This document shows positions 17,889 to 61,158 of a DNA stretch of 64,000 bases, piece by piece. Each line of letters starts with the position of its first letter. Positions within the stretch are counted from its first letter, which is position 1. A model generated the notes under the pieces. That model did not search any database, had not been told where the DNA came from, and saw only the letters and a list, made by a program, of their open reading frames with translations. The stretch covers positions 10,741 through 74,740 of the forward strand of contig JAPYUH010000001.1 in NCBI GenBank assembly GCA_029936195.1, read 5' to 3'. A program made the position numbers and the translations under genes. This DNA comes from Alphaproteobacteria bacterium (lineage in GTDB: Bacteria; Pseudomonadota; Alphaproteobacteria; GCA-2731375).

Positions 17889-19240
17889 TGGCGGATGACA
17901 GCGAAGGCGACAGCCTCACCGGCCGGGTGAAGCGCTATGCCAAGGTGGGCACAGCAGTCGGCGGCCTGGCGGCCCGTCTGGCTGGCGACAAGGTTTTTGG
18001 CCTGAGCCTGGACAAGCCAGCCCATGCCAAGGATCTGAAGAATGCCCTGGGCGGTCTGAAGGGCCCATTGATGAAAGTGGCGCAGATCCTGGCCACCATC
18101 CCCGAGGCGCTGCCCCAGGAATATGTTCAGGAGTTGATCCAGCTGCAGGCCAACGCGCCGGCCATGGGCTGGCTATTCGTCAAGCGGCGCATGGCGGCGG
18201 AATTGGGCCCCGACTGGCAGGACCACTTTGATCAGTTCGAACACCGGGCCGCCGCGGCCGCCTCGTTGGGACAGGTGCACCGCGCCGAACTGGACGGCCG
18301 GGCACTGGCCTGCAAACTGCAATACCCCGACATGAACTCGGCCGTGGAAGCGGATCTGGCGCAACTGAAAATGATATTTTCCATTTACGGCCGCTATGAC
18401 CGCACCATCGACACCTCCAATGTCCATAAGGAGATCGGTGATCGCCTGCGCGAGGAACTGGACTATGACCGGGAAGCCCGGCACATGGCCCTGTTCGCCG
18501 AGGTCCACAAGGGCGAGAAGAATATCCACATTCCCGGCGTGCTGCCGGAATTGTCGACCCGCCGCCTGTTGACCATGAACTGGCTGGACGGCAGGCCCCT
18601 GCTGGATTTCCGCGACGCGGATCTGGAAACCCGCAACACCATCGCCTTGAATATGTTCCGCACCTGGTACGTGCCGTTTTATAATGCCGGGGTCATCCAC
18701 GGCGATCCGCACCTGGGCAATTATACCGTGCGGGACAATCTTGACATCAACCTGCTGGATTTCGGTTGTGTCCGGGTGTTCGACGCGAAATTCGTGCAAG
18801 GGGTGATCGATCTTTATTGCGCTATCCGTGATGACGACCAGGCCCTGGCGGTGCATGCCTACGAGACCTGGGGCTTCACGGAGCTGACGAAGGAAATGAT
18901 CGAAACCTTGAACTTGTGGGCTAATTTCGTTTACGGCCCGTTGCTGGAAGACCGCAGCCGGCGGATCAGGGAAGACAGCGAATCGGGTGTTTACGGCCGT
19001 GACGTGGCCGAAAAAGTGCACCGCGGCCTTCGCGAATTGGGCGGCGTGCGCCCGCCCCAGGAATTTGTCTTCATGGACCGTGCCGCCATCGGCCTTGGCG
19101 GCGTCTTCATGCACCTGAACGCGGAAGTGAATTGGTACCGCCATTTCCATGACCTAATTGATGGATTCGATGCCGCCAAGATGCGGGCCAAGCAAAAACG
19201 CTTGCTCAAAAAATTCGACCTGGACGTGCCCGCGCATTAG
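17888..19240 (+). CDS. ABC1/UbiB-family atypical protein kinase
   Basis: ABC1 kinase motifs (GPLMKVAQILAT, AAASLGQVH, HGDPHLGN). Its ATG overlaps the pepF stop (TAATG). Confidence 0.8.
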   Translation: MADDSEGDSLTGRVKRYAKVGTAVGGLAARLAGDKVFGLSLDKPAHAKDLKNALGGLKGPLMKVAQILATIPEALPQEYVQELIQLQANAPAMGWLFVKRRMAAELGPDWQDHFDQFEHRAAAAASLGQVHRAELDGRALACKLQYPDMNSAVEADLAQLKMIFSIYGRYDRTIDTSNVHKEIGDRLREELDYDREARHMALFAEVHKGEKNIHIPGVLPELSTRRLLTMNWLDGRPLLDFRDADLETRNTIALNMFRTWYVPFYNAGVIHGDPHLGNYTVRDNLDINLLDFGCVRVFDAKFVQGVIDLYCAIRDDDQALAVHAYETWGFTELTKEMIETLNLWANFVYGPLLEDRSRRIREDSESGVYGRDVAEKVHRGLRELGGVRPPQEFVFMDRAAIGLGGVFMHLNAEVNWYRHFHDLIDGFDAAKMRAKQKRLLKKFDLDVPAH

Positions 19241-29785: not shown

Positions 29786-30931
29786 ATGAAAGACTTATCC
29801 AACTCCGTCGCCATTGTGGGCGTCGATGAATCCGATGAAATCGGCAAGTTGCCGGACGTCAGCCTGACCAGCCTGCATCTGCAGGCGGTCCACAATGCCG
29901 TGGCCGACGCCGGTCTGAAAATTTCCGATATTGATGGCGTCTTCACGGCCGGGCAGCATTCCCCGGCCATGTTGGGCGAGGCCCTGGGCATTACCCCGCG
30001 TTATGTGGACGGCACCTCCGTGGGCGGTTGCTCTTTTATCATGATGGTCGGCCACGCCGTGGCGGCGCTGCATCATGGGCTGTGTGACGTGGCGGTGATC
30101 TCGCACGGTGAAAGCGGTCGGTCGGGCACCGGCGTCACCCGTGCCCGCGACACCTCGTTGAGCGGGCAATATGAAATGCCCTATGGCTTTGGCGGCGCGC
30201 CGACATACTTCGGCATGATCACCAACCGGCATATGCATGAATACGGCACCACGTTGGAAGATTGGGCCCGGGTCGCCGTCTCCACCCGCGCATGGGCTGG
30301 CTTGAACCCCAAGGCCATGTTCCGCGATCCCATCACGGTCGAGGACGTGCTGAATTCACCGAAACTGTTCTATCCCTTCAATTTGCTGAACATCTGCCTG
30401 GTCACCGACGCGGGCGGCGCCGTTGTTTTGACCCGGGCCGAACGGGCCAAGGACTGCGCCAAAAAGCCCGTCTATGTGCGTGGCGCGGGCGAGGGCACGG
30501 AGCATACCCTGGTCACCAATATGACAGACATGCCCATGAGCAAGGCAACCGCCATTTCCGGCAACAAGGCGTTCGAGATGGCCGGTGTCACGCACGGCGA
30601 TTTCGATCACATCATGCTGTACGACGCATTTTCCTCCGGCCCGCCGATGATGCTGGAATCCCTTGGCTTTGCCGAGCCCGGTGAAGGTGTGCGGTTCTTC
30701 GACGAGGGCCGCTCGGACCCGGGCGGCTCCCTGCCCATCAACACCAACGGCGGCGGGCTGTCCTACACCCATTCGGGTATGTACGGCATCTTCCCCATTA
30801 TCGAGGCGGTGCGCCAACAGCGCGGCGAATGCGGTGACCGTCAGGTGCCAGGGGTCAAATGCTCGTTGGTCAACGGCATGGGCGGCATGCTCTCGGCGGC
30901 GGGCACCATTGTGCTCTCACACGAGACCTAG
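29786..30931 (+). CDS. Thiolase-like protein (SCP-x/non-specific lipid-transfer thiolase family)
   Basis: Thiolase-fold N-terminus (VAIVGVDESDEIG) and C-terminal active-site region (GGGLSYTHSGMYG...NGMGGM). Adjacent to the DUF35 gene. Confidence 0.8.
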   Translation: MKDLSNSVAIVGVDESDEIGKLPDVSLTSLHLQAVHNAVADAGLKISDIDGVFTAGQHSPAMLGEALGITPRYVDGTSVGGCSFIMMVGHAVAALHHGLCDVAVISHGESGRSGTGVTRARDTSLSGQYEMPYGFGGAPTYFGMITNRHMHEYGTTLEDWARVAVSTRAWAGLNPKAMFRDPITVEDVLNSPKLFYPFNLLNICLVTDAGGAVVLTRAERAKDCAKKPVYVRGAGEGTEHTLVTNMTDMPMSKATAISGNKAFEMAGVTHGDFDHIMLYDAFSSGPPMMLESLGFAEPGEGVRFFDEGRSDPGGSLPINTNGGGLSYTHSGMYGIFPIIEAVRQQRGECGDRQVPGVKCSLVNGMGGMLSAAGTIVLSHET

Positions 30932-30953
30932 GGGAGCGGAGGAGAATCATCTG

Positions 30954-32015
30954 ATGGATTTCGGGGTCAGTTGCGCCAAGATTGACGAAGTCGGCTTTGT
31001 CCGGCATGCGGAAAATCTGGGCTATGACTTTTGCTGGGTAACCGACAGCCAAATGATCCGCTCCAACCCCTGGGCCGTTCTGGCGCTCATTGCGCAGCAG
31101 ACCCAGACCATTCGCATCGGCACCGGCGTCGCCGTGCCGGGCCTGCGCCTGGCGCCGGTGGCGGCGAACGGCATCGCCACCACCGCCCGCCTGGCGCCGG
31201 GGCGCACCTTCATGGGGATCGGCACCGGCAACACGGCTATGCGGACCATGGGGCAGCGGCCGACCACCATCAAGGCCTTCGGCGAATATATTCGTGTCGT
31301 CCGCGCCTTGCTGGATGGCGAGGAGGTCGACTACACCCTGAACGGCGTCACCCAGCCCATTCGATTTCAAAATACCGAACTGCGCTATCTGGATCTGGAT
31401 CACCACATTCCCATCCACGTGGCGGGTTTCGGACCCAAGGCGCAGGCCCTGGCGGGGGAATTGGGCGACGGCCTGATCACCGGCATCCCGCGCGGCGGCG
31501 CCATTCCCTGGGCGCTCGGCAATGTGAAATCCGGCGCCGACCGGGCCGGGCGCGATCTGGATGGTTTTTTCACAACGGCCCTGGTCAACATGTTGCTGTT
31601 GATGCCCGGTGAAACCTTGGAATCTGAACGGGTGGTCGCTGAATGCGGTTCTTCCATCATGGCGAACGTGCATTTCATGGTGGATTGGGTGAAGGAAACG
31701 GGGGGCGATCCGCCGGACTTCATCAAGCCGATCTGGAATGACTACATGGCGTTCCACAACGCCCGCGACGCCGAGACCCAGCATCAAAAACTGCATGAAA
31801 GCCACTACAGCTATCTCGACCCGGAGGAGGCGCGCTTTATCACGCCGGAAGTGATCCGCAATTTCTGCATCGCCGGACAGCCGGAAGAAATCGTTGATCA
31901 GTTGCTGGACCTGGAACGCCAGGGCCTGAACGCCATCAACTTCATCGCGCCCCTGGAGCAGCAATACCGCATGGCCGAGGACTTCGCGGACAAGGTCATA
32001 TCCCGCATGAAATAA
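30954..32015 (+). CDS. LLM-class (luciferase-like) flavin-dependent oxidoreductase
   Basis: Bacterial luciferase-like TIM-barrel signature. ATG at 30954 has a GGAGGAGAA SD. The track's upstream extension is rejected. Confidence 0.8.
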   Translation: MDFGVSCAKIDEVGFVRHAENLGYDFCWVTDSQMIRSNPWAVLALIAQQTQTIRIGTGVAVPGLRLAPVAANGIATTARLAPGRTFMGIGTGNTAMRTMGQRPTTIKAFGEYIRVVRALLDGEEVDYTLNGVTQPIRFQNTELRYLDLDHHIPIHVAGFGPKAQALAGELGDGLITGIPRGGAIPWALGNVKSGADRAGRDLDGFFTTALVNMLLLMPGETLESERVVAECGSSIMANVHFMVDWVKETGGDPPDFIKPIWNDYMAFHNARDAETQHQKLHESHYSYLDPEEARFITPEVIRNFCIAGQPEEIVDQLLDLERQGLNAINFIAPLEQQYRMAEDFADKVISRMK

Positions 32016-32027
32016 GGAGACCGCGCA

Positions 32028-32423
32028 ATGGCATTGACATTGGAAGAGGCCAACCGCATCGCCCAAGGCGCCCTCGCCAAGGCGGCGGCATTGAATATCA
32101 AGATCAATGTCGCGGTCTGCGACGTGGGCGGACGACTGCTGGTTTTCCAGCGCATGGACGGGGCCATGTGGGCCGGGGTTTACGGCAGTCAGGGCAAGGC
32201 CGTCGCCTCCGCGTCTTTTGGACGGCCCAGTGGTGATATGACGGAACGGGCCGGACATCCGACCTTCCGGGCCATCGTGGCCCATTCCGGCGGCGCCATG
32301 ATCATGGGCCAGGGCGCCGTGCCGGTGATCCGCGACGGCGAGGTGCTGGGCGCCTGCGGCGTTGGCGGCGGCACGGGCCAGGAGGACGAGGATTGCGCCC
32401 AGGCGGGCGTTGATCTGCTATAG
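32028..32423 (+). CDS. GlcG/HbpS-like heme-binding protein (DUF336)
   Basis: 131 aa with the DUF336 pattern (AVCDVGGRLL...GGAMIMGQGAVPV...GACGVGGG). Confidence 0.7.
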   Translation: MALTLEEANRIAQGALAKAAALNIKINVAVCDVGGRLLVFQRMDGAMWAGVYGSQGKAVASASFGRPSGDMTERAGHPTFRAIVAHSGGAMIMGQGAVPVIRDGEVLGACGVGGGTGQEDEDCAQAGVDLL

Positions 32424-50169: not shown

Positions 50170-50676
50170 CTAAAGCGACGCCGCGGCGCGTGCCGCCTGA
50201 TCGTAAAGCCCTGAAAGTACGCGCAGCATCCGCGCCGCCTCGCCGATTTCCGCGTTACCCTCGCCCAGGGCGCCGTGGCTGGAGATCAGACAGGATTCGC
50301 GAATTTCCCGGTAGCGCCCGCACAGCGCCTCGCCAGCCGCCGAGATGGCATAGAAGGTTTCCTTGCCTCGCCGGTCCGTCGCGACCAGATCCAGTTTGGA
50401 CAGCTTTTTCAGGGAATAATTCACCACATGGCTGTCTTCGATATTCAATAGGAAGCATAGATCCGACAGCCGCTTCTCCCGCTCCCGGTGATTGACCAGA
50501 TGCAGAACCAAAACGTCAAGGGCGCCCAGGCCGTCCTGCCCGGCGGCGGCGGTGCAGCGCACGATCCAACGGTGATAGGCATTTATGGCCATGTTCAAGC
50601 CAAATTCGAATTCACTCAATTCCGCCGCGTCTTCCGATACCAGATGGGCGGAGGAAACAATGGGCCGGCTGCTCAT
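50170..50676 (-). CDS. MarR-like winged-helix transcriptional regulator
   Basis: wHTH-like central region (LDVLVLHLVNHREREKRLSDLCFLLNIEDSHVVNYSLKKLSKLDLV). Confidence 0.6.
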   Translation of the reverse strand: MSSRPIVSSAHLVSEDAAELSEFEFGLNMAINAYHRWIVRCTAAAGQDGLGALDVLVLHLVNHREREKRLSDLCFLLNIEDSHVVNYSLKKLSKLDLVATDRRGKETFYAISAAGEALCGRYREIRESCLISSHGALGEGNAEIGEAARMLRVLSGLYDQAARAAASL

Positions 50677-53600
50677 GCCCCGTTCCCTTCACTGGTCCCG
50701 CCAACGATCTCTCCAACGACTTCTCCAAAGGCCCCGCTGGTGGGCGTCTGGATGACGAAGATATCCTCGGCCTCCATTTCGGTGCTGTCGCAGCCGCCTA
50801 GTTCCTCGTGGCCGCCGCCCACCCGTTCGACCCAGCAGCGGCCCGCCTCGCCGTCGCCACCGCCCGCCAGGCCATGGGGGGGGATCTTCCGCCGGGAAGA
50901 CAGGATGGAGGCGGTCATGGGGCGCAGGAAACGGATTCGCCGCAGGGTGCCCGCACCGCCATTGAACTGCCCCTTGCCGCCCGAACCGGGACGAATGGCA
51001 AAGCTGTCCAGCAGTACCGGGAACCGCCATTCCAGGATTTCCGGGTCGGTCAGGCGGGAATTGGTCATATGGGCGTGCACCGCGTCGGTGCCGTCAAAGC
51101 CCGGGCCGGCCGGCGTGCCGCTGCAAATGGTCTCGTAATATTGCAGCTCGTTGTCGCCGAAGGTGAAGTTATTCATGGTGCCTTGACAACCGGCCAATTG
51201 ACCCAGGGCGCCGAACAGACAATCGACGATGTTTTGCGAGGTTTCCACATTGCCGGCAACCACGGCGGCCGGAAACTTCGGGTTCAACATGCAATCGTCG
51301 GGAATATGCAGCTCGATCGGCTTCAGGCAACCTGAATTAAGCGGGATGTCATCCTCCACCAGGGAGCGGAAGACATACAATACGGCGGCCCGGCTGACGG
51401 CGGTCGGCGCATTGAAATTCGTGCCAAGCTGAACTGAAGTGCCGGAAAAATCGATCTTGGCGGTGCGGTCGCTGTGATTGATGGAGACCCGCACCTTGAT
51501 TTTGGAGCCGTCGTCCATGGGACATTCAAAGCTGCCTGTATTCAGGATATCGATGACCCGGCGCACGGATTCCTCAGCATTGTCCTGAACGTGCCCCATA
51601 TAGGCATGCACCACGTCCAGGCTAAAATGTTCCACCACCCGGCGCAATTCCTGCACGCCTTTTTCACAGGCCGCGATCTGCGCCTTCAGGTCGGCGATAT
51701 TGCTGTCCGGGTTACGGGAGGGGTACTTTCCCGAGGCCAAGACGGCGCGGATTTCGGCTTCCAGGAAATGCCCCCGATCGACCAGCTTGATATTGTCGAT
51801 CAGAACGCCTTCTTCCTCCACATTGCGGCTGTAGGGGGGCATGGAGCCGGGGCTGATGCCGCCGATTTCCGCGTGGTGGCCGCGGGAGGCGACATAGAAC
51901 AGCACCTTGGCCCGATCGCCCGCGTCGTCGTAGTCGAACACCGGCGTAATGACGGTGACATCGGGCAAATGGGTGCCGCCGTTATAGGGCGCGTTCAGGA
52001 CGAACACATCGCCGGGACGCATGGCGCCCGAATGCTCCCGGATCACCGCCCTGATGGATTCATCCATGCTGCCCAGATGCACCGGCATGTGCGGTGCATT
52101 GGCGATCAGCTCGCCGTTTTGGTCGAACACCGCGCAGGAGAAATCCAGCCGCTCCTTGATGTTGACCGAGTTCGTGGTTTTTTCCAGTACCAGGCCCATC
52201 TGTTCGGCGATGGACATGAACAGATTGTTGAAAATTTCCAACATCACCGGGTCCGCGTCCGTCCCCACCGCTACCCGTTTCGGCAACGGCTGGATGCGGG
52301 TGAGCACCAGATGACCCACATCGGTCAGGGCCGCCTGCCAGCCCGGTTCGATGACCGTGGTGGCGGTGTCTTCCCGCAGGATGGCGGGGCCGCTGACCTT
52401 GTCGCCAGGGCGTAGGTGATTGCGGTCGATCACTGGGGCGTCATGATAGCCCCCGCTCATATAGACCTGGACGTTGGCCAGGGGGGGAATGGTGTCGACG
52501 CGGCCGCCATTCGTGGCATCAAGGGGCAAGTCCACCGCCGGTTCGCCGGCGCCAATGGCCTCGATCGAGACGGCTTCGACCACGTGCGCCTTGGACATAT
52601 CAATAAATCCGAACTGCTGGCGGTGGGCCTCTTCAAAAGCGGCAATGATGCCCCCCTTATGGGTAAAATCCACCACCAGCGCCGTGTCCGTGCCTTGGTA
52701 GCGAAGATGCACTTTACGCAGGACCGAAATTCGGTCCCGGGATATGTCCTGTCCGTCCAGCTCCGCCAGGCCGTCGGCGGCCAATTCATCCAGCTCCGCC
52801 GAAAGCTGCGCCATCAAGGCATCGTCGAGAACCGCTTCCACCGCCCGTTCCCGCATGGCGCTGACATCGGCCAGGCCCATGCCGTAGGCCGACAGGACGC
52901 CCGCCAGGGGGTGGAGGAAAACTTGTTTCATGCCCAGTGCGTCGGCCACCAGACAGGCATGCTGTCCGCCGGCCCCGCCAAAACTGCTGAGCACGTATTC
53001 GGAAACGTCATAGCCGCGCTGGATGGAGATTTTTTTGATGGCGTTGGCCATGTTTTCCACGGCGATGGTCAGATAGCCCTCGGCAATGGCCTCCACCGGC
53101 ATGGGTTCGCGGCCCGAGCCGGCGATGTCGGCGGCCAGGGCGGTGAATTTCTCCACCACGGCGTCCCGGTTCAGGGGCTCGTCGCCATTGGGGCCGAACA
53201 CCTTGGGGAAGAAATCCGGGTTCAACTTGCCCAGCATGACATTGCAATCGGTCACCGCCAGAGGACCGCCGCGCCGGTAACAGGCGGGACCGGGATTGGC
53301 GCCGGCCGAATCGGGGCCCACGGAAAAGCGCGCGCCGTCGAAATGCAGGATCGAACCGCCGCCCGCCGCAACGGTATGGATGTGCATCATCGGCGCGCGC
53401 ACGCGCACGCCGGCGACTTCGCTCTCAAAGGCCCGTTCAAAATCGCCGGCATAATGGGAGACGTCCGTCGATGTGCCGCCCATATCAAACCCGATGATCT
53501 TTTCGAACCCGGCCATGGCGGTGGTGCGTACCGCGCCGACCACGCCGCCGGCGGGGCCGGAGAGGATGCAATCCTTGCCCTGGAACAGGCTGGCGTCGGT

Positions 53601-54332
53601 CAGGCCGCCGTTGGATTGCATGAACATCAGGCGGGCGTCGCCCAACTCTGCGGCCACCCGGTCCACATAACGGCGCAGAATGGGCGAGAGATAGGCGTCG
53701 ACCACGGTGGTGTCCCCGCGCCCGACCATTTTCATCAATGGACTGACCTGGTGGGACGTTGAAATCTGCGTGAAACCAATCTCCCCGGCAACCTCCGCCA
53801 CTGCCTTTTCGTGGGCGGTGTAGCGGTAGCCGTGAACGAAAACGATGGCGCAGGCGCGAATCCCGTCATCATAGGCCGCCTGCAGGCCAAGGCGGGCTTC
53901 TTCCAGGTCCACGGGTGCGCGCTCGTCTCCCTGGGCGGTATAGCGTCCCGTCACCTCCACCACCTGTTCGTACAGCATTTCGGGCAGTTTGACGTCGAGA
54001 TCGAACAGGCGGGGGCGGTTTTGGTAGCCGATGCGCAGGGCGTCACGGAAGCCTTTGTTGGTCACCAACAAGGTGCGGTCGCCCTTGCGTTCCAGCAAGG
54101 CATTGGTGCCCACCGTGGTGCCCATCTTGACGGAGGCGATGCGCTCCGTGGGGATCGGATCGGTCTTTGCCACGCCAAGCAGGTCCCTGATGCCCTGCAA
54201 GGCGGCGTCCGGGTATTGTTCGGGATTTTCCGACAGCAGTTTGTGGCTGAGGTAACCTGCCCCGGGCCGCCGCGCCACCACATCCGTGAAGGTGCCACCA
54301 CGGTCAATCCAGAAATCCCACTTTTCGGGCAT
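50673..54332 (-). CDS. Fused hydantoinase/oxoprolinase (HyuA-HyuB; ATP-dependent 5-oxoprolinase / N-methylhydantoinase family)
   Basis: About 1220 aa. Hydantoinase_A N-terminus (FWIDRGGTFTDVV) and a Hydantoinase_B C-terminal half. ATG at 54332 is chosen over the TTG at 54407, which lies in the AT-rich leader. Confidence 0.85.
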   Translation of the reverse strand: MPEKWDFWIDRGGTFTDVVARRPGAGYLSHKLLSENPEQYPDAALQGIRDLLGVAKTDPIPTERIASVKMGTTVGTNALLERKGDRTLLVTNKGFRDALRIGYQNRPRLFDLDVKLPEMLYEQVVEVTGRYTAQGDERAPVDLEEARLGLQAAYDDGIRACAIVFVHGYRYTAHEKAVAEVAGEIGFTQISTSHQVSPLMKMVGRGDTTVVDAYLSPILRRYVDRVAAELGDARLMFMQSNGGLTDASLFQGKDCILSGPAGGVVGAVRTTAMAGFEKIIGFDMGGTSTDVSHYAGDFERAFESEVAGVRVRAPMMHIHTVAAGGGSILHFDGARFSVGPDSAGANPGPACYRRGGPLAVTDCNVMLGKLNPDFFPKVFGPNGDEPLNRDAVVEKFTALAADIAGSGREPMPVEAIAEGYLTIAVENMANAIKKISIQRGYDVSEYVLSSFGGAGGQHACLVADALGMKQVFLHPLAGVLSAYGMGLADVSAMRERAVEAVLDDALMAQLSAELDELAADGLAELDGQDISRDRISVLRKVHLRYQGTDTALVVDFTHKGGIIAAFEEAHRQQFGFIDMSKAHVVEAVSIEAIGAGEPAVDLPLDATNGGRVDTIPPLANVQVYMSGGYHDAPVIDRNHLRPGDKVSGPAILREDTATTVIEPGWQAALTDVGHLVLTRIQPLPKRVAVGTDADPVMLEIFNNLFMSIAEQMGLVLEKTTNSVNIKERLDFSCAVFDQNGELIANAPHMPVHLGSMDESIRAVIREHSGAMRPGDVFVLNAPYNGGTHLPDVTVITPVFDYDDAGDRAKVLFYVASRGHHAEIGGISPGSMPPYSRNVEEEGVLIDNIKLVDRGHFLEAEIRAVLASGKYPSRNPDSNIADLKAQIAACEKGVQELRRVVEHFSLDVVHAYMGHVQDNAEESVRRVIDILNTGSFECPMDDGSKIKVRVSINHSDRTAKIDFSGTSVQLGTNFNAPTAVSRAAVLYVFRSLVEDDIPLNSGCLKPIELHIPDDCMLNPKFPAAVVAGNVETSQNIVDCLFGALGQLAGCQGTMNNFTFGDNELQYYETICSGTPAGPGFDGTDAVHAHMTNSRLTDPEILEWRFPVLLDSFAIRPGSGGKGQFNGGAGTLRRIRFLRPMTASILSSRRKIPPHGLAGGGDGEAGRCWVERVGGGHEELGGCDSTEMEAEDIFVIQTPTSGAFGEVVGEIVGGTSEGNGA

Positions 54333-54462
54333 GGTACCATTCCTTATGTAAATTATTTGTCGATAAAATATCAATAATTTATCTGTTAAGCAACAGTCGC
54401 TTGCCAATTGTCCGTGGGCGTCCTAAAGGGTAACGGACCGCGTTTGAGGGATAGATAGCGGC
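54333..54462. promoter_or_regulatory. AT-rich divergent promoter region between the hydantoinase operon and the djlA-like gene
   Basis: About 130 bp with local AT >65%, containing imperfect repeats (TCGATAAAATATC / AATAATTTATC). Confidence 0.4.
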
Positions 54463-55188
54463 ATGAGCATATGGAATAGAGTTGTTCGCGGCGTGGGCGG
54501 CGCCTTGGATGGACCGTTGGGCGCCCTGCTTGGCGGGCTGGCCGAGCAGGCGGCGGATACCTTGCGCCAGATCACCGGCGAGCCGGCGGAGGGCACCCAA
54601 CAGGTTGCTTTCACCATCGGCGTCATTGCCCTTGGCGCCAAGATGGCCAAGGCGGATGGCCAAGTGACCCGTGACGAGGTGGAAGCCTTCAAACAGGTCT
54701 TCAAGATTTCGCCCGAGGATATGAAGGATGTCTCCCGCGTCTTCAATCTGGCGCGCAAGGATGTCGCCGGGTTCGAGGCCTATGCTGGCCAGATTGCCGG
54801 CTTGTTCGAGCCTGGGTCGCAAACCCTGGAAGATCTGCTGCACGGCCTGTTTCACATCGCCAAGGCGGACCAGGTGGTGCTTCCCGCGGAACTGGATTAT
54901 CTCGGCAAGGTGGCGGAAATTTTTGGTTTTGATGCCGCCGATTTTTCCCGAATCCGGGCCTATCATCTGGGTCCCGACCTGGCCGACCCCTACACTATTC
55001 TGGGCATCGAGGCCGATCTCGATGAAGATGGGGTGAAGCAGGCCTGGCGCGCCTTGATCCGGGAGAACCATCCCGACCGGGCCATCGCCCGCGGCTTGCC
55101 CCAGGAATTTATCGATCTGGCGACCGAGAAGCTGGCCACCATCAATGACGCCTATGACCGGATCAGCCGGCAGCGTGGCTTTAAGTAA
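54463..55188 (+). CDS. DjlA-like co-chaperone (TerB-like domain + C-terminal J domain)
   Basis: C-terminal J domain with HPD (PYTILGIEADLDEDGVKQAWRALIRENHPDR). Central TerB-like region. No obvious N-terminal TM helix. Confidence 0.7.
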   Translation: MSIWNRVVRGVGGALDGPLGALLGGLAEQAADTLRQITGEPAEGTQQVAFTIGVIALGAKMAKADGQVTRDEVEAFKQVFKISPEDMKDVSRVFNLARKDVAGFEAYAGQIAGLFEPGSQTLEDLLHGLFHIAKADQVVLPAELDYLGKVAEIFGFDAADFSRIRAYHLGPDLADPYTILGIEADLDEDGVKQAWRALIRENHPDRAIARGLPQEFIDLATEKLATINDAYDRISRQRGFK

Positions 55189-55211
55189 GCCGTTTCAAAT
55201 AGGAGTGCGAC

Positions 55212-55424
55212 ATGAAAATCGATATCGAATATTGCATGCAATGAAACTACGAACCCAATGCCCTCCGTGCGAGGGACCGGATCATGGCAAGGCATGGCGC
55301 AGAGGTAAGTTTAACCGCATCTGGCGGCGGTAAGTTCGAAATCACCGTCGATGGCGTCCTGGCCTACTCCAAGAAAGCCGTTGGGCGCTTCCCAACCGAT
55401 GCAGAACTGGATGCGCTGGTCTAG
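55212..55424 (+). CDS. SelW/Rdx-family selenoprotein with in-frame UGA (Sec) in a CxxU motif
   Basis: AGGAG SD 6 nt upstream of the ATG. Translation is MKIDIEYCMQ-[TGA]-NYEPNALRARDRIMARHGAEVSLTASGGGKFEITVDGVLAYSKKAVGRFPTDAELDALV. The IEYCxxU and GG.FE(I/V)TVDG...SKK..GRFP blocks match the Rdx/SelW family. The TGA at 55242-55244 sits exactly at the redox-motif Sec position. Confidence 0.6.
55261..55275 (+). promoter_or_regulatory. Candidate SECIS-like hairpin downstream of the in-frame UGA
   Basis: CCCTC-CGTGC-GAGGG stem-loop beginning 17 nt after the TGA. The full structure is not verified. Confidence 0.3.
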
Positions 55425-55475
55425 ATTACGAGCACACGGCAGCTTGCAGCATGGGGCGGGGTCGCCACGCGGTCT

Positions 55476-57281
55476 TCACATTGGCGGGGCCGGGTCCAGA
55501 ATGCCTTCTTCGCAGGCCTTGATCTGCAAGGCCAGGAACTTTGAATATATGCGTATATGGGGCAGGCCGCCGGCGGTGAACCACAGGCCGGGCTGTGCCG
55601 TGCGGCGCCACATATTGCGCAATTCGCCTTCCCCATCAAAGCCCCAGACGGGCCCGATCTTCTCGGCCACCGCGTCACCCAAGGTGGCGCGGACGACCTC
55701 TTGCTGGTTCTCGTAGCCGGTCGCCGTCACCAAAAGATCGGCCGCCACGATGGTGCCGTCTTTCAAGCGGACACCTTCGGGCACGAATCTTTCGATCTGG
55801 TCATAGTGCATCAGGCCCACCTGACCATCTATGATCAGTTCCGAACAGCCCACGTTCAGACAATAGCCGCCGCCGCGGCGCAGATACTTCATCTGCAGGC
55901 CGGTATTGTCGGGCGGCCCGAGGTCGAGGCGGAAACCACGCGCCGTCAGGCCGTCGAGCAAGTCCTTGTCCGCCGCCTGCATGGCGCGGGCCATCATTTG
56001 GTAACCCTGAACCAGAACCGGGTAGGGCGACGCGGCGGCGAGGAGGTCGCAATCCTCGGTCGGCGGCCCTTCATCATACAGGGCATAGATCTTTTGCGCC
56101 TCGTCAATACTGGCGATCAGGGTGGTGCCCCGTTGGATGACGGTGACATCAACGCCGCTGGCGTGCAGATCCTGGGCCACGTCATGGCCGCTATTGCCGG
56201 TGCCCAAGACCAGGGCCTTGCGCCCCGCCCACTGATGGCCGGAAAGATAGGCGCCGGAATGCATGACGTCGCCCGCGAAGTCATCCAGGCCCGGCAGATC
56301 CGGGTGAATGGGAATGCCGCTGACCCCGGTGGCGAAGACCACGTGACGGGGATGGACAACGCGGTCACGACCATCCGCGCCGTCCAACGTGATGTCCCAC
56401 CGACCGGCGGCCTGGTCATAGGCGCCGCCGCCGAGCGAGGTGGCGGTCCATACGTTCAATTCCATGCTCTCGGCATAGGTCTCGAACCAGTTGGCCAGTT
56501 TATCCTTGGGGATATAGAGAGGCCAGTTAGGTGGAAACGGCATGTAGGGCAGATGGTTGACATGGGTCTGATTGTGCAGCGCCAGGGCGTGGTAACGCAG
56601 GCGCCAGGAATCGCCGATCCGCTCGGTCCGGTCGATGACCAGGGTATCGACGCCAAGCTGGCCCAGACAGGCGGCGATACCAAGGCCCGCTTGGGCGCCG
56701 CCAACCACCAGAACGTCCGGCTCATGCCCGGCGTAGGCTTGTGCCGTGTTCCGCAGGTCGAGCCAATTGTCGCCGCCGAATTCCCGGGAATAACCTTCCC
56801 CGTCCGGTCGGTGGGCGCCAATGCGTTCTTCATGGCCGGTGATTTGTTCCAGGGCCGTCGCCAGCACCCAGGCGCGCCAATCGTTTCCATCCCCTTCTTC
56901 ACCGTCCAAGACCAGGCGGAGGACACCATTGGCCGGTCCCGTCGCGGTCTCGAAGGCAAAAATAGCCTCGATGGTCTCGGTCCCGGCCCGGGATACCAGG
57001 CGCGGCGGCGTGCGGTGGGGGGCGATTTGAAACCCCTTGGCCTGGGTGCCGGGCTGGGTTTGCCGCAGCCTGGCCGCGATATCGTGCCGGCCGTTCATGG
57101 TCCGGATATGCCCGGTGAAGGCGACCAGGTCACGCCAGTGCCCATCGCCTAGGAATAGCCCCGCCGCGCCGTCCGCGTCTCCCGACCCCTGGGCCGTGTC
57201 GAAGGCGTCCAGCCAATCGCTGACGATTTCTGCTAATCGTTCCCCGGGCGTTGCCCCGGGTAATTCCTCGGCCAATGCCAT
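55476..57281 (-). CDS. Flavin-containing monooxygenase (FMO/Baeyer-Villiger type, FAD/NAD(P)-binding)
   Basis: Two Rossmann dinucleotide motifs (VLVVGGAQAGLG, ALVLGTGNSGHD) in a 601-aa protein with the FMO-like motif arrangement. Confidence 0.8.
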   Translation of the reverse strand: MALAEELPGATPGERLAEIVSDWLDAFDTAQGSGDADGAAGLFLGDGHWRDLVAFTGHIRTMNGRHDIAARLRQTQPGTQAKGFQIAPHRTPPRLVSRAGTETIEAIFAFETATGPANGVLRLVLDGEEGDGNDWRAWVLATALEQITGHEERIGAHRPDGEGYSREFGGDNWLDLRNTAQAYAGHEPDVLVVGGAQAGLGIAACLGQLGVDTLVIDRTERIGDSWRLRYHALALHNQTHVNHLPYMPFPPNWPLYIPKDKLANWFETYAESMELNVWTATSLGGGAYDQAAGRWDITLDGADGRDRVVHPRHVVFATGVSGIPIHPDLPGLDDFAGDVMHSGAYLSGHQWAGRKALVLGTGNSGHDVAQDLHASGVDVTVIQRGTTLIASIDEAQKIYALYDEGPPTEDCDLLAAASPYPVLVQGYQMMARAMQAADKDLLDGLTARGFRLDLGPPDNTGLQMKYLRRGGGYCLNVGCSELIIDGQVGLMHYDQIERFVPEGVRLKDGTIVAADLLVTATGYENQQEVVRATLGDAVAEKIGPVWGFDGEGELRNMWRRTAQPGLWFTAGGLPHIRIYSKFLALQIKACEEGILDPAPPM

Positions 57282-57358
57282 GATCGTCTCCTCGGCGCTA
57301 CATTTGCAAAATTATATCCAGGCCGGAAGGGATGTCCAACATCCGTCCTGGGAGGACA

Positions 57359-57811
57359 TCAATGATAGTCGCCGCCGGGATTGAAACTTTCGTCTTTCGC
57401 CAATACACCTTGGCCGGGGACGAAGTTCACCTCGACGCGAATGCCGTCGGGATCTTCACACAGAACATAATAATATCCGGGCGCCCAGGGGCCTTCCTTG
57501 GCCGGGCTGACAATATGGGCATCCATCTCCACCAGCAATGCCGCGACTGCGTCCACGTCCTCGCGGGACCGGGCGCGGAAACAGATGTGGTGCAGCCCAA
57601 CCCGGCCCTGCACGAACCGCTCGCCCGCATGTTCGGCTAGGCAGGGCTGAATGCCCAGGGCCGTGCGCGCACCCACGAAATAGCACATTTCAGACCCGTC
57701 AAAGACGCATTTCATCCCCAGGGCCGGCATCAGCGTTGCGTAAAAGGCCTTGGCCTTGTCGAACTGGCTGACGGTCAGTATGACGTGGGCCATGCCGTTG
57801 ACGGTGATCAT
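57359..57811 (-). CDS. VOC-family (glyoxalase/bleomycin-resistance/extradiol dioxygenase) protein
   Basis: 150 aa with a VOC beta-alpha-beta-beta-beta module (HVILTVSQFDKAKAFY...HICFRA). ATGA overlap with the upstream transporter gene. Confidence 0.7.
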   Translation of the reverse strand: MITVNGMAHVILTVSQFDKAKAFYATLMPALGMKCVFDGSEMCYFVGARTALGIQPCLAEHAGERFVQGRVGLHHICFRARSREDVDAVAALLVEMDAHIVSPAKEGPWAPGYYYVLCEDPDGIRVEVNFVPGQGVLAKDESFNPGGDYH

Positions 57812-58953
57812 CTTGTCCCCCCCTCGTGTTGTCGCAATAACAAGCTTACACCATAGCCGAACACCAGGCCCCAGAATGGGGCGCCCACGTTCAGGAAGGC
57901 GATGCCGGACAGGGTAACCAGAAAACTGACCAGGGCGCCCAGGGCGTGCGGCCCGCCGAACGCAGTGGTGAAGGCGCCCCGCAGCACCGCCAACATGGCC
58001 AGACCGCCGAGCAGATTAATGAAGACCGCCGGCAGGACCAGGCCCAAACCGGTGGTAAAGGGCGCAAACAAGCCGAACAAGATGGCCAGCAGGCCGAATA
58101 TGACACCCGCCATGTAGCGCTGCTCCTTCACGCCGGAGGTATTCAGAATGGCATTGGCGGGTCCCGTGACGCATGTGGGGACGGAGCCGAAGGCGCCGAA
58201 CAACAGGCTGCCCAGGCCGCAGGCCACGGTCAGATTATTTTCCGGCGGCGCAAACCCCGCCTGGCGCAGAATGACAAAACCCTGTGCATTCTGGGCCGCG
58301 ATCACCGTCACGGCCAAGGGCACCACCAGTTCGCCCAGCGCCCGCAGGGTGAACTCCGGCGTATAAATAATGGGTTGAACCAGCGTCAGCGCCGGTATCT
58401 CCACACCCGCCATCTGACCCGAGGCGACAATGACAATCGTGCCTGCGGCCAGGGCGCACAAAACGGGGGGCAACACGCGGCCCAGGCGGCGGATGGCCGT
58501 GGGAATGGCGAAGGCGGCCACCATTGCCCCGGCCATCACCGTCGCCTCGCCAAAGGCGGTGATGATGTTCAGGCCAAAGGGCAGGAAAACGGCGGCCACC
58601 ATGGCCATGACAATGGGCATGGGAATGGCCGCCATGATGCGGGTCACCAGACCACTGACGCCCAGAACGGTGAGCAGCAGGCCGCAGACCAGGCAGGCGC
58701 CCAGCACCTCGGCAAAGCTGAGATGCTGCAGGGCGCCGCCGACCAGTACGGCGCCGGGAATGGTCCACATCAAGGCGATGGGCTGGCGGAAAACATAGCT
58801 GAACACCATGGTCAGCAAGCCGCCGAAGGCAAAGGCGGCAAAGACCCAGGAGCTGATATCCTCGGGCCGCAATCCACCCTGGCGGCCCACGGCCAGGATG
58901 ATCACCACCGGGCCGGATATAGCGAACAGCCAGGCCACCAGGGCATTGACCAT
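57808..58953 (-). CDS. BenE-family (benzoate:H+ symporter-like) membrane transporter
   Basis: About 380-aa, 12-TM protein with Gly/Ala-rich helices typical of BenE. Confidence 0.55.
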   Translation of the reverse strand: MVNALVAWLFAISGPVVIILAVGRQGGLRPEDISSWVFAAFAFGGLLTMVFSYVFRQPIALMWTIPGAVLVGGALQHLSFAEVLGACLVCGLLLTVLGVSGLVTRIMAAIPMPIVMAMVAAVFLPFGLNIITAFGEATVMAGAMVAAFAIPTAIRRLGRVLPPVLCALAAGTIVIVASGQMAGVEIPALTLVQPIIYTPEFTLRALGELVVPLAVTVIAAQNAQGFVILRQAGFAPPENNLTVACGLGSLLFGAFGSVPTCVTGPANAILNTSGVKEQRYMAGVIFGLLAILFGLFAPFTTGLGLVLPAVFINLLGGLAMLAVLRGAFTTAFGGPHALGALVSFLVTLSGIAFLNVGAPFWGLVFGYGVSLLLRQHEGGTR

Positions 58954-59031
58954 TGTGTGGCGGTCAATGCCCCGGAGGCAGTCCCTTAGTCCTGGCAGGG
59001 GCCGGGGTGGTGGTTCCAGAATTGCCAGTGG

Positions 59032-59889
59032 TTACTCCGCGACGATCGGGTTGGAGAGGACACCGATGCCTTCGATCTCGATCTCGCAGACATCGCCGTC
59101 CTTCATCCAAACCTGTGGTGTTCGCGCCGCACCCACGCCGGGCGGCGTGCCCATGATGATGACGTCGCCCGGACAGAGCGTCATGGCCTCGGTCAAGGTT
59201 TCGATCACCGTTTCCACGTCAAAGATATGCTGGCCGGTATTGGAATCTTGCATGCTCTCGCCGTTCAGGCGGCATTGGATGCGCAGATCGTTGACCGGCT
59301 TGGGCAATTCGTCGGGCGTCACCAGCTCCGGTCCGAAACCGCCCGAGGCGTCGAAGTTCTTGCCCATGGTCCATTGCGGCGCCTTGAACTGATAGCTGCG
59401 GATGGAGCCGTCATTGAAGCAGGAATAGCCCGCGACGTGCGACAGGGCGTCGGCCTTGGCAATGTGCCGCCCAGCCTTGCCGATGATCACCGCCAATTCG
59501 GCTTCCCAGTCATAGTCCGAGGCCGCTTTCGGCAGGATCATGGGTGTGTTATGCGCCGCCATGGTCGTCGGCGTGCGCATGAAGATGATGGGATAGTCGG
59601 GGATATCGGCGCCGGTTTCGATGGCATGGTCGCGGTAATTCAGGCCGCAGCACAAAATTTTCGGCGGCTTGGTAACCACGGGCAGATAATTGGCGCCCGC
59701 CGCCGGGATCAACGCGTCATCATGGGCGGAAGCGGCGGCCTGACCGGCTTTATCAAGCGCGTTGGCCTCCAAAAGCGCCGTCATGTCGTTGGGCAGATCC
59801 GGCGCGGCCTTGGACAGATCCACATAGTTGTCGTCCCGGCGGACGCCGAGAATTTGCTGGCCGTTGTGTTGAAGGGTCGCGATACGCAT
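59032..59889 (-). CDS. Fumarylacetoacetate hydrolase (FAH) family protein
   Basis: FAH-fold motifs (ILCCGLNYRDHA, GTPPGVG). Confidence 0.85.
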   Translation of the reverse strand: MRIATLQHNGQQILGVRRDDNYVDLSKAAPDLPNDMTALLEANALDKAGQAAASAHDDALIPAAGANYLPVVTKPPKILCCGLNYRDHAIETGADIPDYPIIFMRTPTTMAAHNTPMILPKAASDYDWEAELAVIIGKAGRHIAKADALSHVAGYSCFNDGSIRSYQFKAPQWTMGKNFDASGGFGPELVTPDELPKPVNDLRIQCRLNGESMQDSNTGQHIFDVETVIETLTEAMTLCPGDVIIMGTPPGVGAARTPQVWMKDGDVCEIEIEGIGVLSNPIVAE

Positions 59890-59997
59890 GATGTCGGTCC
59901 GTCCTGTTTTTGCGAAGATGATTTGGCAACGTTGGGGCGCAATTTACGCCGTTGCCGGGGCAATGCATAGTGGCCAGGCAGGCGAGGAGTGGTGAAT

Positions 59998-61158
59998 ATG
60001 AATAAAGAGGACCAATTTTCCGGTGTCGGGCTGCCGGCCGAGACTAGTTTGGATACGGTTCTGACGGGGCGGCGGTTCGAGGCGTTGGAGAATTTTTTTC
60101 GCACCTTCGCTATCCGCCCAGGCGACCGCATGGTCTTTCTGGCCGACCGCAAACTGGACCCTCGGGTCATTCACGCTATTTGCGGGTTGGCCCGCGCGCG
60201 CGGCGTGGACCCTTGGGTGGTCATGAACGAGAGCTCCCAGCATACCGAAGTTCCGCCCGAAGTCCGGCCCATGCTGGAGCAGGCGACCTTTGTCGTTTCC
60301 ACCTGGTTTTGCTCCATCATTGATCCGTTCTGTATTGCGCAGCGCGCCAAGGGTCAGCGCTGGGTGAAAATTACCTACTTCCGCGATCTTGACCTGCTCG
60401 ACACCCCCCAGGCGCGCTTCCCCATCGATTTGGTGGGCGAGATTATCCGCCAGACGGCGGCGCAATATCCGTCTTCGGGAGATTTCGATCTGCATTTCAC
60501 CTGCCCCCGGGGCACCGACCTGACGATCAAGTTTACCGGCGCCATGGGCGCCAATTTGTTGGGCTCCAACCGCTGGCGCGGACAAATGACGGCCGATGAA
60601 CCCGGCGCTTATGTGCATTATCTGCCCACCCACGGCCCAAATCTTTACGACCGCACTTCGGTCAATAACAATGATGACATGGCGGTCTCCTTGAACGGCG
60701 TCGTGGTGCCCAACTGGGCGGTTGGCTTTGAGCGGCCATTCGAGGAAGCGATTCGCGTGCAGTTTCAGGATGACAGCGTCACCGGCGTCGAAGGCAACAG
60801 CGAGACCGCCGCGATCCTGCGCGAGATGCTGATGGGCGGTCAGATCATCGAACTGGGCTGCGGCTTCAACCCCAAGGCGCCCCGGCACACCATTTACCCG
60901 GCCGGCTCTAATTCGCCGGGCGCCTTGCACTACGGAATAGATCTTGCCCAACCATCCGACTACATCCGCCGCACCATGCCCGATTGGGAGGAACCGCCCG
61001 TACACATGGATCTGATCGCCTTCGACGCCACGGTAACCGCGGGCGACGGGACGTTGATCGACGGCGGCCTGCTGACCGCCCTGCGGTCGCCGTCCGTGGT
61101 CGAAAAGGCGCGGCAATATGGCGATCCGGTCGATCTGTTGGAGAACTGGCCGGAATAG
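59998..61158 (+). CDS. Conserved hypothetical protein, possibly aminopeptidase T (M29)/NicX-like fold
   Basis: 386 aa. ATG with a GAGGAG SD. Only weak architectural resemblance to M29/NicX proteins, so the function is not assigned. Confidence 0.4.
   Translation: MNKEDQFSGVGLPAETSLDTVLTGRRFEALENFFRTFAIRPGDRMVFLADRKLDPRVIHAICGLARARGVDPWVVMNESSQHTEVPPEVRPMLEQATFVVSTWFCSIIDPFCIAQRAKGQRWVKITYFRDLDLLDTPQARFPIDLVGEIIRQTAAQYPSSGDFDLHFTCPRGTDLTIKFTGAMGANLLGSNRWRGQMTADEPGAYVHYLPTHGPNLYDRTSVNNNDDMAVSLNGVVVPNWAVGFERPFEEAIRVQFQDDSVTGVEGNSETAAILREMLMGGQIIELGCGFNPKAPRHTIYPAGSNSPGALHYGIDLAQPSDYIRRTMPDWEEPPVHMDLIAFDATVTAGDGTLIDGGLLTALRSPSVVEKARQYGDPVDLLENWPE

Follow-up and report, generated by a model that had tools for sequence, protein, structure and literature searches.

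An in-frame UGA and a conserved hairpin point to a SelW-like selenoprotein gene in marine Alphaproteobacteria

We analyzed a 64,000-nt stretch of an alphaproteobacterial contig (GCA_029936195.1, JAPYUH010000001.1, positions 10,741 to 74,740; the window, below), in which a short frame on the + strand is interrupted by a TGA. We consider it very likely that this frame, at window positions 55212 to 55424, is the gene for a 70-residue SelW-like protein of the Rdx family, with selenocysteine (Sec) at the UGA of a CxxU motif. An earlier, sequence-only reading of this DNA had placed a 70-codon frame here behind an AGGAG Shine-Dalgarno (SD) sequence, and direct reading of the nucleotides found both. 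The SD at 55201 to 55205 (+) lies 6 nt 5' of the ATG at 55212, and the frame opens ATG AAA ATC GAT ATC GAA TAT TGC ATG CAA TGA AAC TAC; its translation is MKIDIEYCMQ, the TGA (55242 to 55244), NYEPNALRARDRIMARHGAEVSLTASGGGKFEITVDGVLAYSKKAVGRFPTDAELDALV, and the TAG (55422 to 55424), that is, 70 codons and a stop with Sec at codon 11. A GGAG-type SD lies 6 to 9 nt 5' of the homologous ATG in nearly all relatives of the same clade.

The frame matches one Rdx domain across the UGA

Sec was written as Cys for the Pfam and NCBIfam profile searches. The 70-aa product matched the Pfam family Rdx (PF10262) at 60.3 bits (cutoff, 22.6; E = 2e-16), with the match spanning residues 2 to 70 of 70 and profile positions 1 to 72 of 74. 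The 46-aa tail that follows the TGA scored 35.4 bits by itself; the higher score of the full frame places the ten codons 5' of the TGA within the Rdx domain. The NCBIfam subfamily model TIGR02174 (CXXU_selWTH) was also passed (48.8 against a cutoff of 34.2). A sequence search of the PDB returned Atu0228 (2fa8, 1e-8), MIEN1, four other bacterial SelW-related proteins, and mouse SelW. The UGA position aligns with the second Cys of the CxxC motif in 2fa8, 2ljk, and 2obk, and C8-M-Q-U11 of the window protein aligns with CTQC of 2fa8 and CEPC of 2ljk.

For the fold, an AlphaFold2 model of the full-length relative P0001, built from a 37-sequence alignment, stands in for the window protein, to which P0001 is 74% identical in the word-indexed search described below and 76% identical in alignment A1. 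The model has a mean predicted local distance difference test (pLDDT) score of 95.3 and the topology b1 (residues 2 to 8), CxxU, a1 (14 to 28), b2, b3, b4, a2, with the redox motif C8-M-Q-U11 after strand b1 and before helix a1. In a Foldseek search with this model, the top 23 PDB matches were all Rdx/SelW proteins and thioredoxins came next; superposition on 2fa8 gave a template modeling (TM) score of 0.90 and a root mean square deviation (rmsd) of 1.1 to 1.3 Å. The SelW/Rdx hallmarks that had been recognized in the frame from sequence alone are borne out by the Rdx profile, by TIGR02174, and by the fold of the P0001 model.

The deep HMMER search described below was led by P0017 (5,647 aa; E = 1.5e-80), P0018, P0027, P0028, and other giant proteins. 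P0017, the only giant inspected, consists of 58 tandem immunoglobulin-like repeats, 'VTFTASGGDEYEFYVGG', that weakly resemble 'VTLTASGGGKFEITVDG'; we rejected it as an Rdx homologue, its score being the sum of many weak chance matches to these repeats.

The UGA codon is conserved at the catalytic position

The word-indexed search covered 5.8 billion proteins and returned 16 relatives, 14 of which are fragments of 39 to 52 aa that begin just past the UGA position. The remaining two, P0001 (70 aa, full length) and P0002 (62 aa, beginning two codons upstream), carry W at the UGA. In DNA, the codon is TGA in all 15 metagenome and metagenome-assembled genome (MAG) loci, including those of P0001 and P0002 and copies of the gene identical to that in the window, which occur in MAG GCA_028821955.1 and in several metagenomes. 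The TGA of these loci is flanked in frame by MKIDIEYC[MS][QM] before it and NY[EK]PNALRARDR after it.

A scan of one genome per GTDB species recovered 33 loci with 41 to 90% identity to the query. For most of them the recovery pattern lies 5' of the UGA codon, and the scan is therefore not biased toward TGA over TGC. The homologous codon is TGA in 32 of the 33 loci, which come from marine Alphaproteobacteria/'Rhodospirillaceae' MAGs, Hyphomicrobiaceae, Acetobacteraceae, SAR324, Gemmatimonadota, Gammaproteobacteria/Pseudomonadales, and Actinomycetota. The sole exception, the isolate Demequina sediminicola, has TGC (Cys).

An exhaustive HMMER search with P0001 gave 167 relatives. By a rough tally, the 150 matches listed comprise about 60 CxxW, 12 CxxC, 9 CxxG, 3 CxxS, and 2 WxxW forms and 40 N-terminally truncated calls. 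Where DNA was traced, W did not stand for TGG: the genes of P0001, P0026, and P0047 have TGA, the W of P0001 being TGA translated under genetic code 4, and both WxxW matches have TGA at both codons. The nine representatives that bear G possibly reflect translation under code 25. The sequence-only reading had held that the UGA sits exactly where the redox-active Sec or Cys is found in this family and had proposed looking for Cys orthologs with TGC at the codon. The position is indeed that of the second Cys in CxxC homologs and in the PDB structures, and Cys forms were found, namely, the D. sediminicola gene and the dozen or so CxxC homologs of the tally.

Selection acts on the frame on both sides of the UGA. 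Across the close clade, which comprises 18 distinct sequences, all 18 have TGA, and codons 2 to 8 vary only synonymously (AAA/AAG, ATC/ATT, TAT/TAC, TGC/TGT). Cys-8 (TGC, 55233 to 55235, +), the resolving or partner cysteine of CxxU, is accordingly an invariant residue of the clade, changing only between TGC and TGT, and it is nearly invariant in family alignment A3. Pairwise synonymous and nonsynonymous differences within the clade numbered 285 and 203, respectively, for codons 2 to 10 and 441 and 162 for codons 12 to 24. A downstream segment that was not conserved in this frame had been named as something that would count against the gene; the orthologs keep the post-UGA segment in frame.

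A hairpin downstream of the UGA has the geometry of a bacterial SECIS

The inverted repeat CCCTC (55261 to 55265), CGTGC, GAGGG (55271 to 55275) starts at the 17th nucleotide after the TGA. The corresponding hairpin (55261 to 55275, +) has a 5-bp stem, a 5-nt loop, CGUGC (55266 to 55270), that contains G55267-U55268, a distance of 21 nt from the UGA to the loop, and a free energy of -7.8 kcal/mol. The published model of the bacterial selenocysteine insertion sequence (bSECIS; PMC13188914, Fig. 2) has an apical loop of 3 to 9 nt, an upper stem of 4 to 16 bp, a minimum free energy (MFE) of -7.5 kcal/mol or lower, a G at loop position 1 or 2 with G or U as the next nucleotide, and a UGA-to-loop distance of 16 to 37 nt. 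The window hairpin lies within every one of these limits, with the loop G at position 2 followed by U.

Comparison among relatives points the same way. A 5-nt NGUNY loop (CGUGC, AGUCU, AGUUU, GGUCU) is found in the same register despite the different peptides encoded there (ALRARD, AVSLAA, ADSLSA, ATSLMD), and RNAalifold returned the same hairpin as the sole consensus helix. Among 30 sequences, compensatory double changes affect three of the five core pairs. Covariation scored 0.322 compared with 0.124 in shuffles (none of 500 shuffles reached 0.322), and pairing amounts to 79% in the true register versus at most 54% in slid registers. Within the close clade, the hairpin codons GCC CTC CGT GCG AGG are invariant at four- and sixfold degenerate sites, while elsewhere in the gene Ala, Arg, and Leu are encoded by three to five synonyms. 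Synonymously variable codons number 0 of 4 in the hairpin and 27 of 29 elsewhere (Fisher p = 3.7e-4). The clade is a clean case of RNA-level selection within a coding region, seen as a synonymous freeze of the SECIS codons.

No such hairpin is present in the Cys-form ortholog L048, in which the canonical pairing would have an energy of +4.8 kcal/mol. Four Hyphomicrobiaceae/Acetobacteraceae loci (L034, L035, L036, and L039) have a CGUGC-loop hairpin at nt 18 to 30 past the U of the UGA, 3 nt nearer the UGA than in the window, without an indel in the protein alignment. This shift of the hairpin without a change in the protein indicates selection on the RNA. The suggestion that the repeat 17 nt past the UGA is a bacterial SECIS thus gains from its agreement with the bSECIS model, its covariation, and its synonymous freeze.

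A further helix was seen in a subclade (L016, L019, L020, and L028), in which CUACGA.CC pairs with GG.UCGUAG (nt 6 to 14 with 38 to 46 past the U of the UGA) and gives a longer bipartite stem-loop in the MFE structures, at -15 to -19 kcal/mol. The window copy of this lower helix (55247 to 55287) contains a C.A mismatch, and more distant relatives lack the helix.

Weighing the assignment against other explanations

Several observations weigh against a Sec-encoding gene with a SECIS. Genes for selA, selB, selD, and tRNA-Sec were found neither in the 64-kb window nor in 716 kb of related loci: tblastn with SelA and SelD, for which the E. coli queries are approximate, gave no match in either; a tRNA search of the window and 38 loci found no tRNA-Sec, only tRNA-Gly(CCC); and Pfam annotation of 30 window ORFs (open reading frames) gave nothing related to Sec. 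The hairpin energy of -7.8 kcal/mol barely clears the threshold and the stem has just 5 bp, a gathering-threshold Rfam scan of the whole window gave no match, and the hairpin lies inside the coding sequence, where its conservation is partly protein constraint. The region past the UGA (55242 to 55300; 59 nt, single sequence) is no more stable than its shuffles (z = +0.9). The folding check that had been proposed for this region is therefore split, in that the hairpin fits the bSECIS model and the region shows no excess stability, and because of this z score the SECIS case rests on comparative data. At the protein level, the best-scoring NCBIfam model was NF041051 (SelTWH_Campy), with 81.6 bits; since this is below its equivalog cutoff of 88, the window protein belongs only to the broader TIGR02174 subfamily and not to that equivalog. 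The fold model is that of P0001 and not of the window protein itself. Finally, a 2026 review describes the prokaryotic SELENOW-like family (PF10262, CxxU, one Sec) as 'predicted with high confidence' (PMC13188914).

Linkage of Sec-machinery genes to a selenoprotein locus is not expected, and we assume, from the conserved UGA and the SECIS signature, that the host genome is Sec competent. In Alphaproteobacteria, selC may be nested within selB (Mukai 2021, cited in PMC13188914). We also looked in the window for a second TGA-bridged gene; only antisense shadows and adjacent same-frame genes appeared, with a crude filter that missed 55212 to 55424 too.

Conservation of the frame does not by itself discriminate Sec from other kinds of read-through, and the UGA could in principle be decoded by a near-cognate Cys or Trp tRNA, or recoded otherwise, in a lineage without Sec machinery. 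We regard this as very unlikely. In CxxC homologs and solved structures the catalytic Cys stands where the UGA does, which is the classic Sec/Cys signature, and a hairpin of SECIS geometry with a G-U loop is conserved, covaries, and is frozen only in the TGA forms, a pattern hard to explain without SelB. General read-through would moreover be costly, because the normal stop codon used most in the window is TGA.

It is more improbable still that the UGA is an ordinary stop separating a 10-aa leader from an independent 46-aa C-terminal Rdx fragment that starts at ATG 55284. Products of 46 to 47 aa are called in NCBI, JGI, ENA, and Logan records, the 3' arm of the hairpin (GAGGGA, in window 55271 to 55286) mimics an SD 7 nt 5' of this internal ATG, and the Sec machinery of this genome stands as an assumption. 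The internal start, however, is not conserved, being ATG, GTG, TTG, or missing, at differing positions, among relatives. Codons 2 to 8 and codons 12 to 24 alike are under purifying selection in frame, the latter with the 441 synonymous and 162 nonsynonymous differences given above, and the Rdx score falls from 60 bits for the full frame to 35 for the fragment. Strand b1, the redox motif, and most of helix a1 would be missing from a 46-aa product, and the TGA is kept in 32 of 33 lineages together with a covarying hairpin.

A decaying pseudogene or a genetic code in which TGA means Trp or Gly has a negligible chance of being correct, even though some metagenome pipelines give relatives W or G at this codon: the DNA of P0001, P0026, and P0047 reads TGA and not TGG, decay cannot account for a nonsense codon at the identical position, under purifying selection, in five phyla, and the altered code is excluded because TGA is the commonest stop in the window, ending 26 of 55 crude gene calls, among them those of the 1,244-aa hydantoinase and the 601-aa flavin monooxygenase (FMO).

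For a SelW-like selenoprotein, the following course of expression can be proposed. Ribosomes would start at ATG 55212 behind the AGGAG, on a transcript probably shared with the upstream djlA-like gene. With UGA 55242 in the A site, the hairpin at 55261 to 55275, whose loop CGUGC carries the G-U typical of bacterial SECIS loops, would recruit SelB-GTP-Sec-tRNA(Sec); we infer that Sec is inserted through SelB at this codon in place of termination, and translation would continue to TAG 55422. The predicted product is a thioredoxin-like domain of minimal size (b1-a1-b2-b3-b4-a2), its Cys8-x-x-Sec11 motif placed where b1 meets a1. It is most likely a thiol-dependent oxidoreductase that would cycle between selenol/thiol and selenenylsulfide.

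Annotation of the gene in public records

It had been suggested that stop-to-stop ORF finding would split or miss the gene, and this is what the ORF listing of the locus looks like. It contains a 62-aa ORF at 55145 to 55333 (+) and, at a 40-aa threshold, also the 46-aa in-frame tail at 55284 to 55424 (+), an artefact of stopping at the UGA. The 62-aa ORF overlaps the end of the djlA-like gene and the start of the Rdx gene; it lies in another frame, has no Pfam match, and was rejected as spurious.

Public records show the same. The gene is called as a 46-aa Rdx protein in GCA_028821955.1 (JAPKEU010000019.1) and in others, and throughout the records found (GCA_028821955.1, GCA_018668705.1, GCA_016776605.1, and ENA, JGI, and Logan contigs; L001 to L015 and L049 to L052), it appears as a 39- to 52-aa fragment or with W under code 4. 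The 46-aa genes are probably called with confidence because the 3' arm of the hairpin resembles a ribosome-binding site. Because the gene is mis-annotated, selenoproteome counts, and with them the selenium dependence inferred for this widespread alphaproteobacterial clade of the deep ocean and oxygen minimum zones, come out too low. The value of the locus lies mainly in annotation, as the records found either truncate the gene (46 to 47 aa) or put Trp or Gly at the UGA. It leaves knowledge of selenoproteins unchanged, SelW-like CxxU proteins having been known since 2005 as the commonest marine prokaryotic family, and it adds no resolution of what SelW-like proteins do.

Gene neighborhood

The sequence-only reading had the gene following a DjlA-like chaperone gene and converging on a flavin monooxygenase gene, and domain annotation confirmed both neighbors. 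The upstream gene (54463 to 55188, +) encodes TerB and DnaJ domains (Pfam, 97.9 and 32.5 bits, respectively). The gap between its stop and the Rdx ATG is 23 nt in the window and 11 to 29 nt across the clade, and no promoter-like or + strand terminator-like site was seen between the two genes; judging from this arrangement, they are probably cotranscribed. The 3' neighbor that converges on the Rdx gene, an FMO-like gene of 601 codons, occurs only in the window's own lineage; sister lineages carry a beta-eliminating lyase gene in its place. The gene order hydantoinase/oxoprolinase (-), djlA (+), Rdx (+) is conserved only in L001 to L031, which form one marine alphaproteobacterial clade. Distant Sec forms adjoin unrelated genes, encoding an amidohydrolase, PFK, M19 dipeptidase, diacylglycerol kinase, and ClC/Hsp70 or MscL; in SAR324, an Hsp70 gene lies directly 3' of the Rdx gene.

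The redox-stress context read from these neighbors lacks support, and we rejected gene context as a guide to function: the FMO is lineage specific, the DjlA/hydantoinase synteny is clade specific, and the neighbors elsewhere are unrelated. A more specific proposal is that the SelW-like protein is an operon partner of the DjlA-like membrane cochaperone and serves a DnaK/DnaJ-type chaperone system as a selenium-dependent redox switch or as a subunit that reduces its clients. This dedicated partnership is suggested by the 11- to 29-nt gap kept over the clade and by the Hsp70 gene 3' of Rdx in SAR324; we think it very unlikely. If true, it would be the first physiological role for bacterial SelW-like proteins.

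Synteny breaks right after the Rdx stop (window 55425 to 59900 compared with 10150 to 13100 of L002/L008). Past this point come FMO, glyoxalase, BenE, and FAA-hydrolase genes in the window lineage and Beta_elim_lyase, MaoC, 2-hydroxyacid dehydrogenase, and tRNA-Gly(CCC) genes in the sister lineages; no tRNA gene was found anywhere in the 64-kb window. In L014 (GCA_029935975.1, JAPOGM010007368.1; 6131 to 8100), a window-identical copy from a metagenome, the FMO aligns over 398 of 601 residues and the gene calls are fragmented, which could be a disruption or an assembly error.

An M19 membrane dipeptidase gene lies directly 3' of two gammaproteobacterial Sec forms (L042, 1086 to 2351; L044, 10252 to 11529), and L046 has a downstream ORF of like size (432 aa). 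In the alphaproteobacterial clade, a gene for a fused hydantoinase A/B (oxoprolinase-like) protein lies two genes 5' of Rdx (window 50673 to 54407). Both enzyme types are able to act in glutathione breakdown, and these placements may reflect a link to glutathione or a coincidence.

Elsewhere in the window, three ORFs have no Pfam family at E <= 1e-5: 18176 to 19150 (-; 325 aa), 30873 to 32285 (-; 471 aa), and 59989 to 61155 (+; 389 aa). A 450-aa + strand ORF competes with the 471-aa - strand ORF at 30.9 to 32.0 kb.

Relatives with a UxxU motif

UxxU replaces CxxU in two distant marine Rdx relatives, L053 (ENA ERZ25083853 NODE_105292, 268 to 492) and L054 (TARA_SAMEA2621021 scaffold_244800, 58 to 279), two loci from separate samples with nonidentical nucleotide sequences. 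Their core reads TAT TGA GGA ATG TGA AAC TAC, with two in-frame TGAs, and each has a single AGUUU-loop hairpin, which would lie at a distance of 21 nt from the second UGA and of 30 nt from the first one. The review table for the SelW-like family has only CxxU with one Sec, and UxxU has already been reported in other prokaryotic families (PMC13188914). L053 and L054 would represent a possible diselenide subfamily of SelW-like proteins in which one SECIS serves two UGAs.

Comparison with known SelW and Rdx proteins

The Cys-containing bacterial Rdx proteins of known structure (Atu0228, 2fa8; Pseudomonas fluorescens, 2obk; P. aeruginosa, 2oka; Vibrio cholerae, 2p0g; Bordetella parapertussis, 2ojl; Streptomyces avermitilis, 3dex) share the fold, with TM scores of 0.8 to 0.9 and rmsd values of 1.1 to 2.0 Å against the P0001 model, and their IxYCxxC aligns with IEYCxxU of the window protein. 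They differ in having CxxC, a length of about 100 to 108 aa with extra C-terminal residues, and 22 to 35% identity, and they need no SECIS. Mammalian SelW (2npb, CxxU) and MIEN1/C17orf37 (2ljk, CxxC) likewise have the thioredoxin-like Rdx fold with the motif at the b1-a1 junction. Mammalian SelW differs in that its SECIS lies in the 3' untranslated region and has another architecture, and its similarity is low (E = 0.055; TM score, 0.69). SelW has been reported to bind glutathione (as stated in PMC1088965). Eukaryotic partners such as 14-3-3 are not known to have a bacterial counterpart. The Campylobacter-type SelT/W/H proteins of NF041051, a 70-position equivalog, share the length of 70 with the window protein, which scores below their cutoff.

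The closest known systems are the prokaryotic SelW-like selenoproteins. Among the prokaryotic selenoprotein families of marine metagenomes, the SelW-like CxxU family ranks first in abundance (Zhang, Fomenko & Gladyshev 2005, PMC1088965; Zhang & Gladyshev 2008, PMC2398784), with 427 Sec and 56 Cys forms in the Global Ocean Sampling data (PMC2398784). The window gene has in common with them (PMC1088965, PMC2398784, PMC13188914) the family, the N-terminal CxxU, a SECIS near the UGA with a loop G, the marine habitat, and a predominance of Sec over Cys forms, and nothing essential differs. Its relatives come from Saanich Inlet, the Black Sea, the Caspian, TARA samples, and deep-ocean MAGs. What sets the window clade apart is the minimal length of 70 aa, the clade-specific linkage to djlA, and its occurrence in marine Alphaproteobacteria/'Rhodospirillaceae' MAGs. 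The window gene is a typical marine alphaproteobacterial member of the SelW-like family, unsurprising to a specialist.

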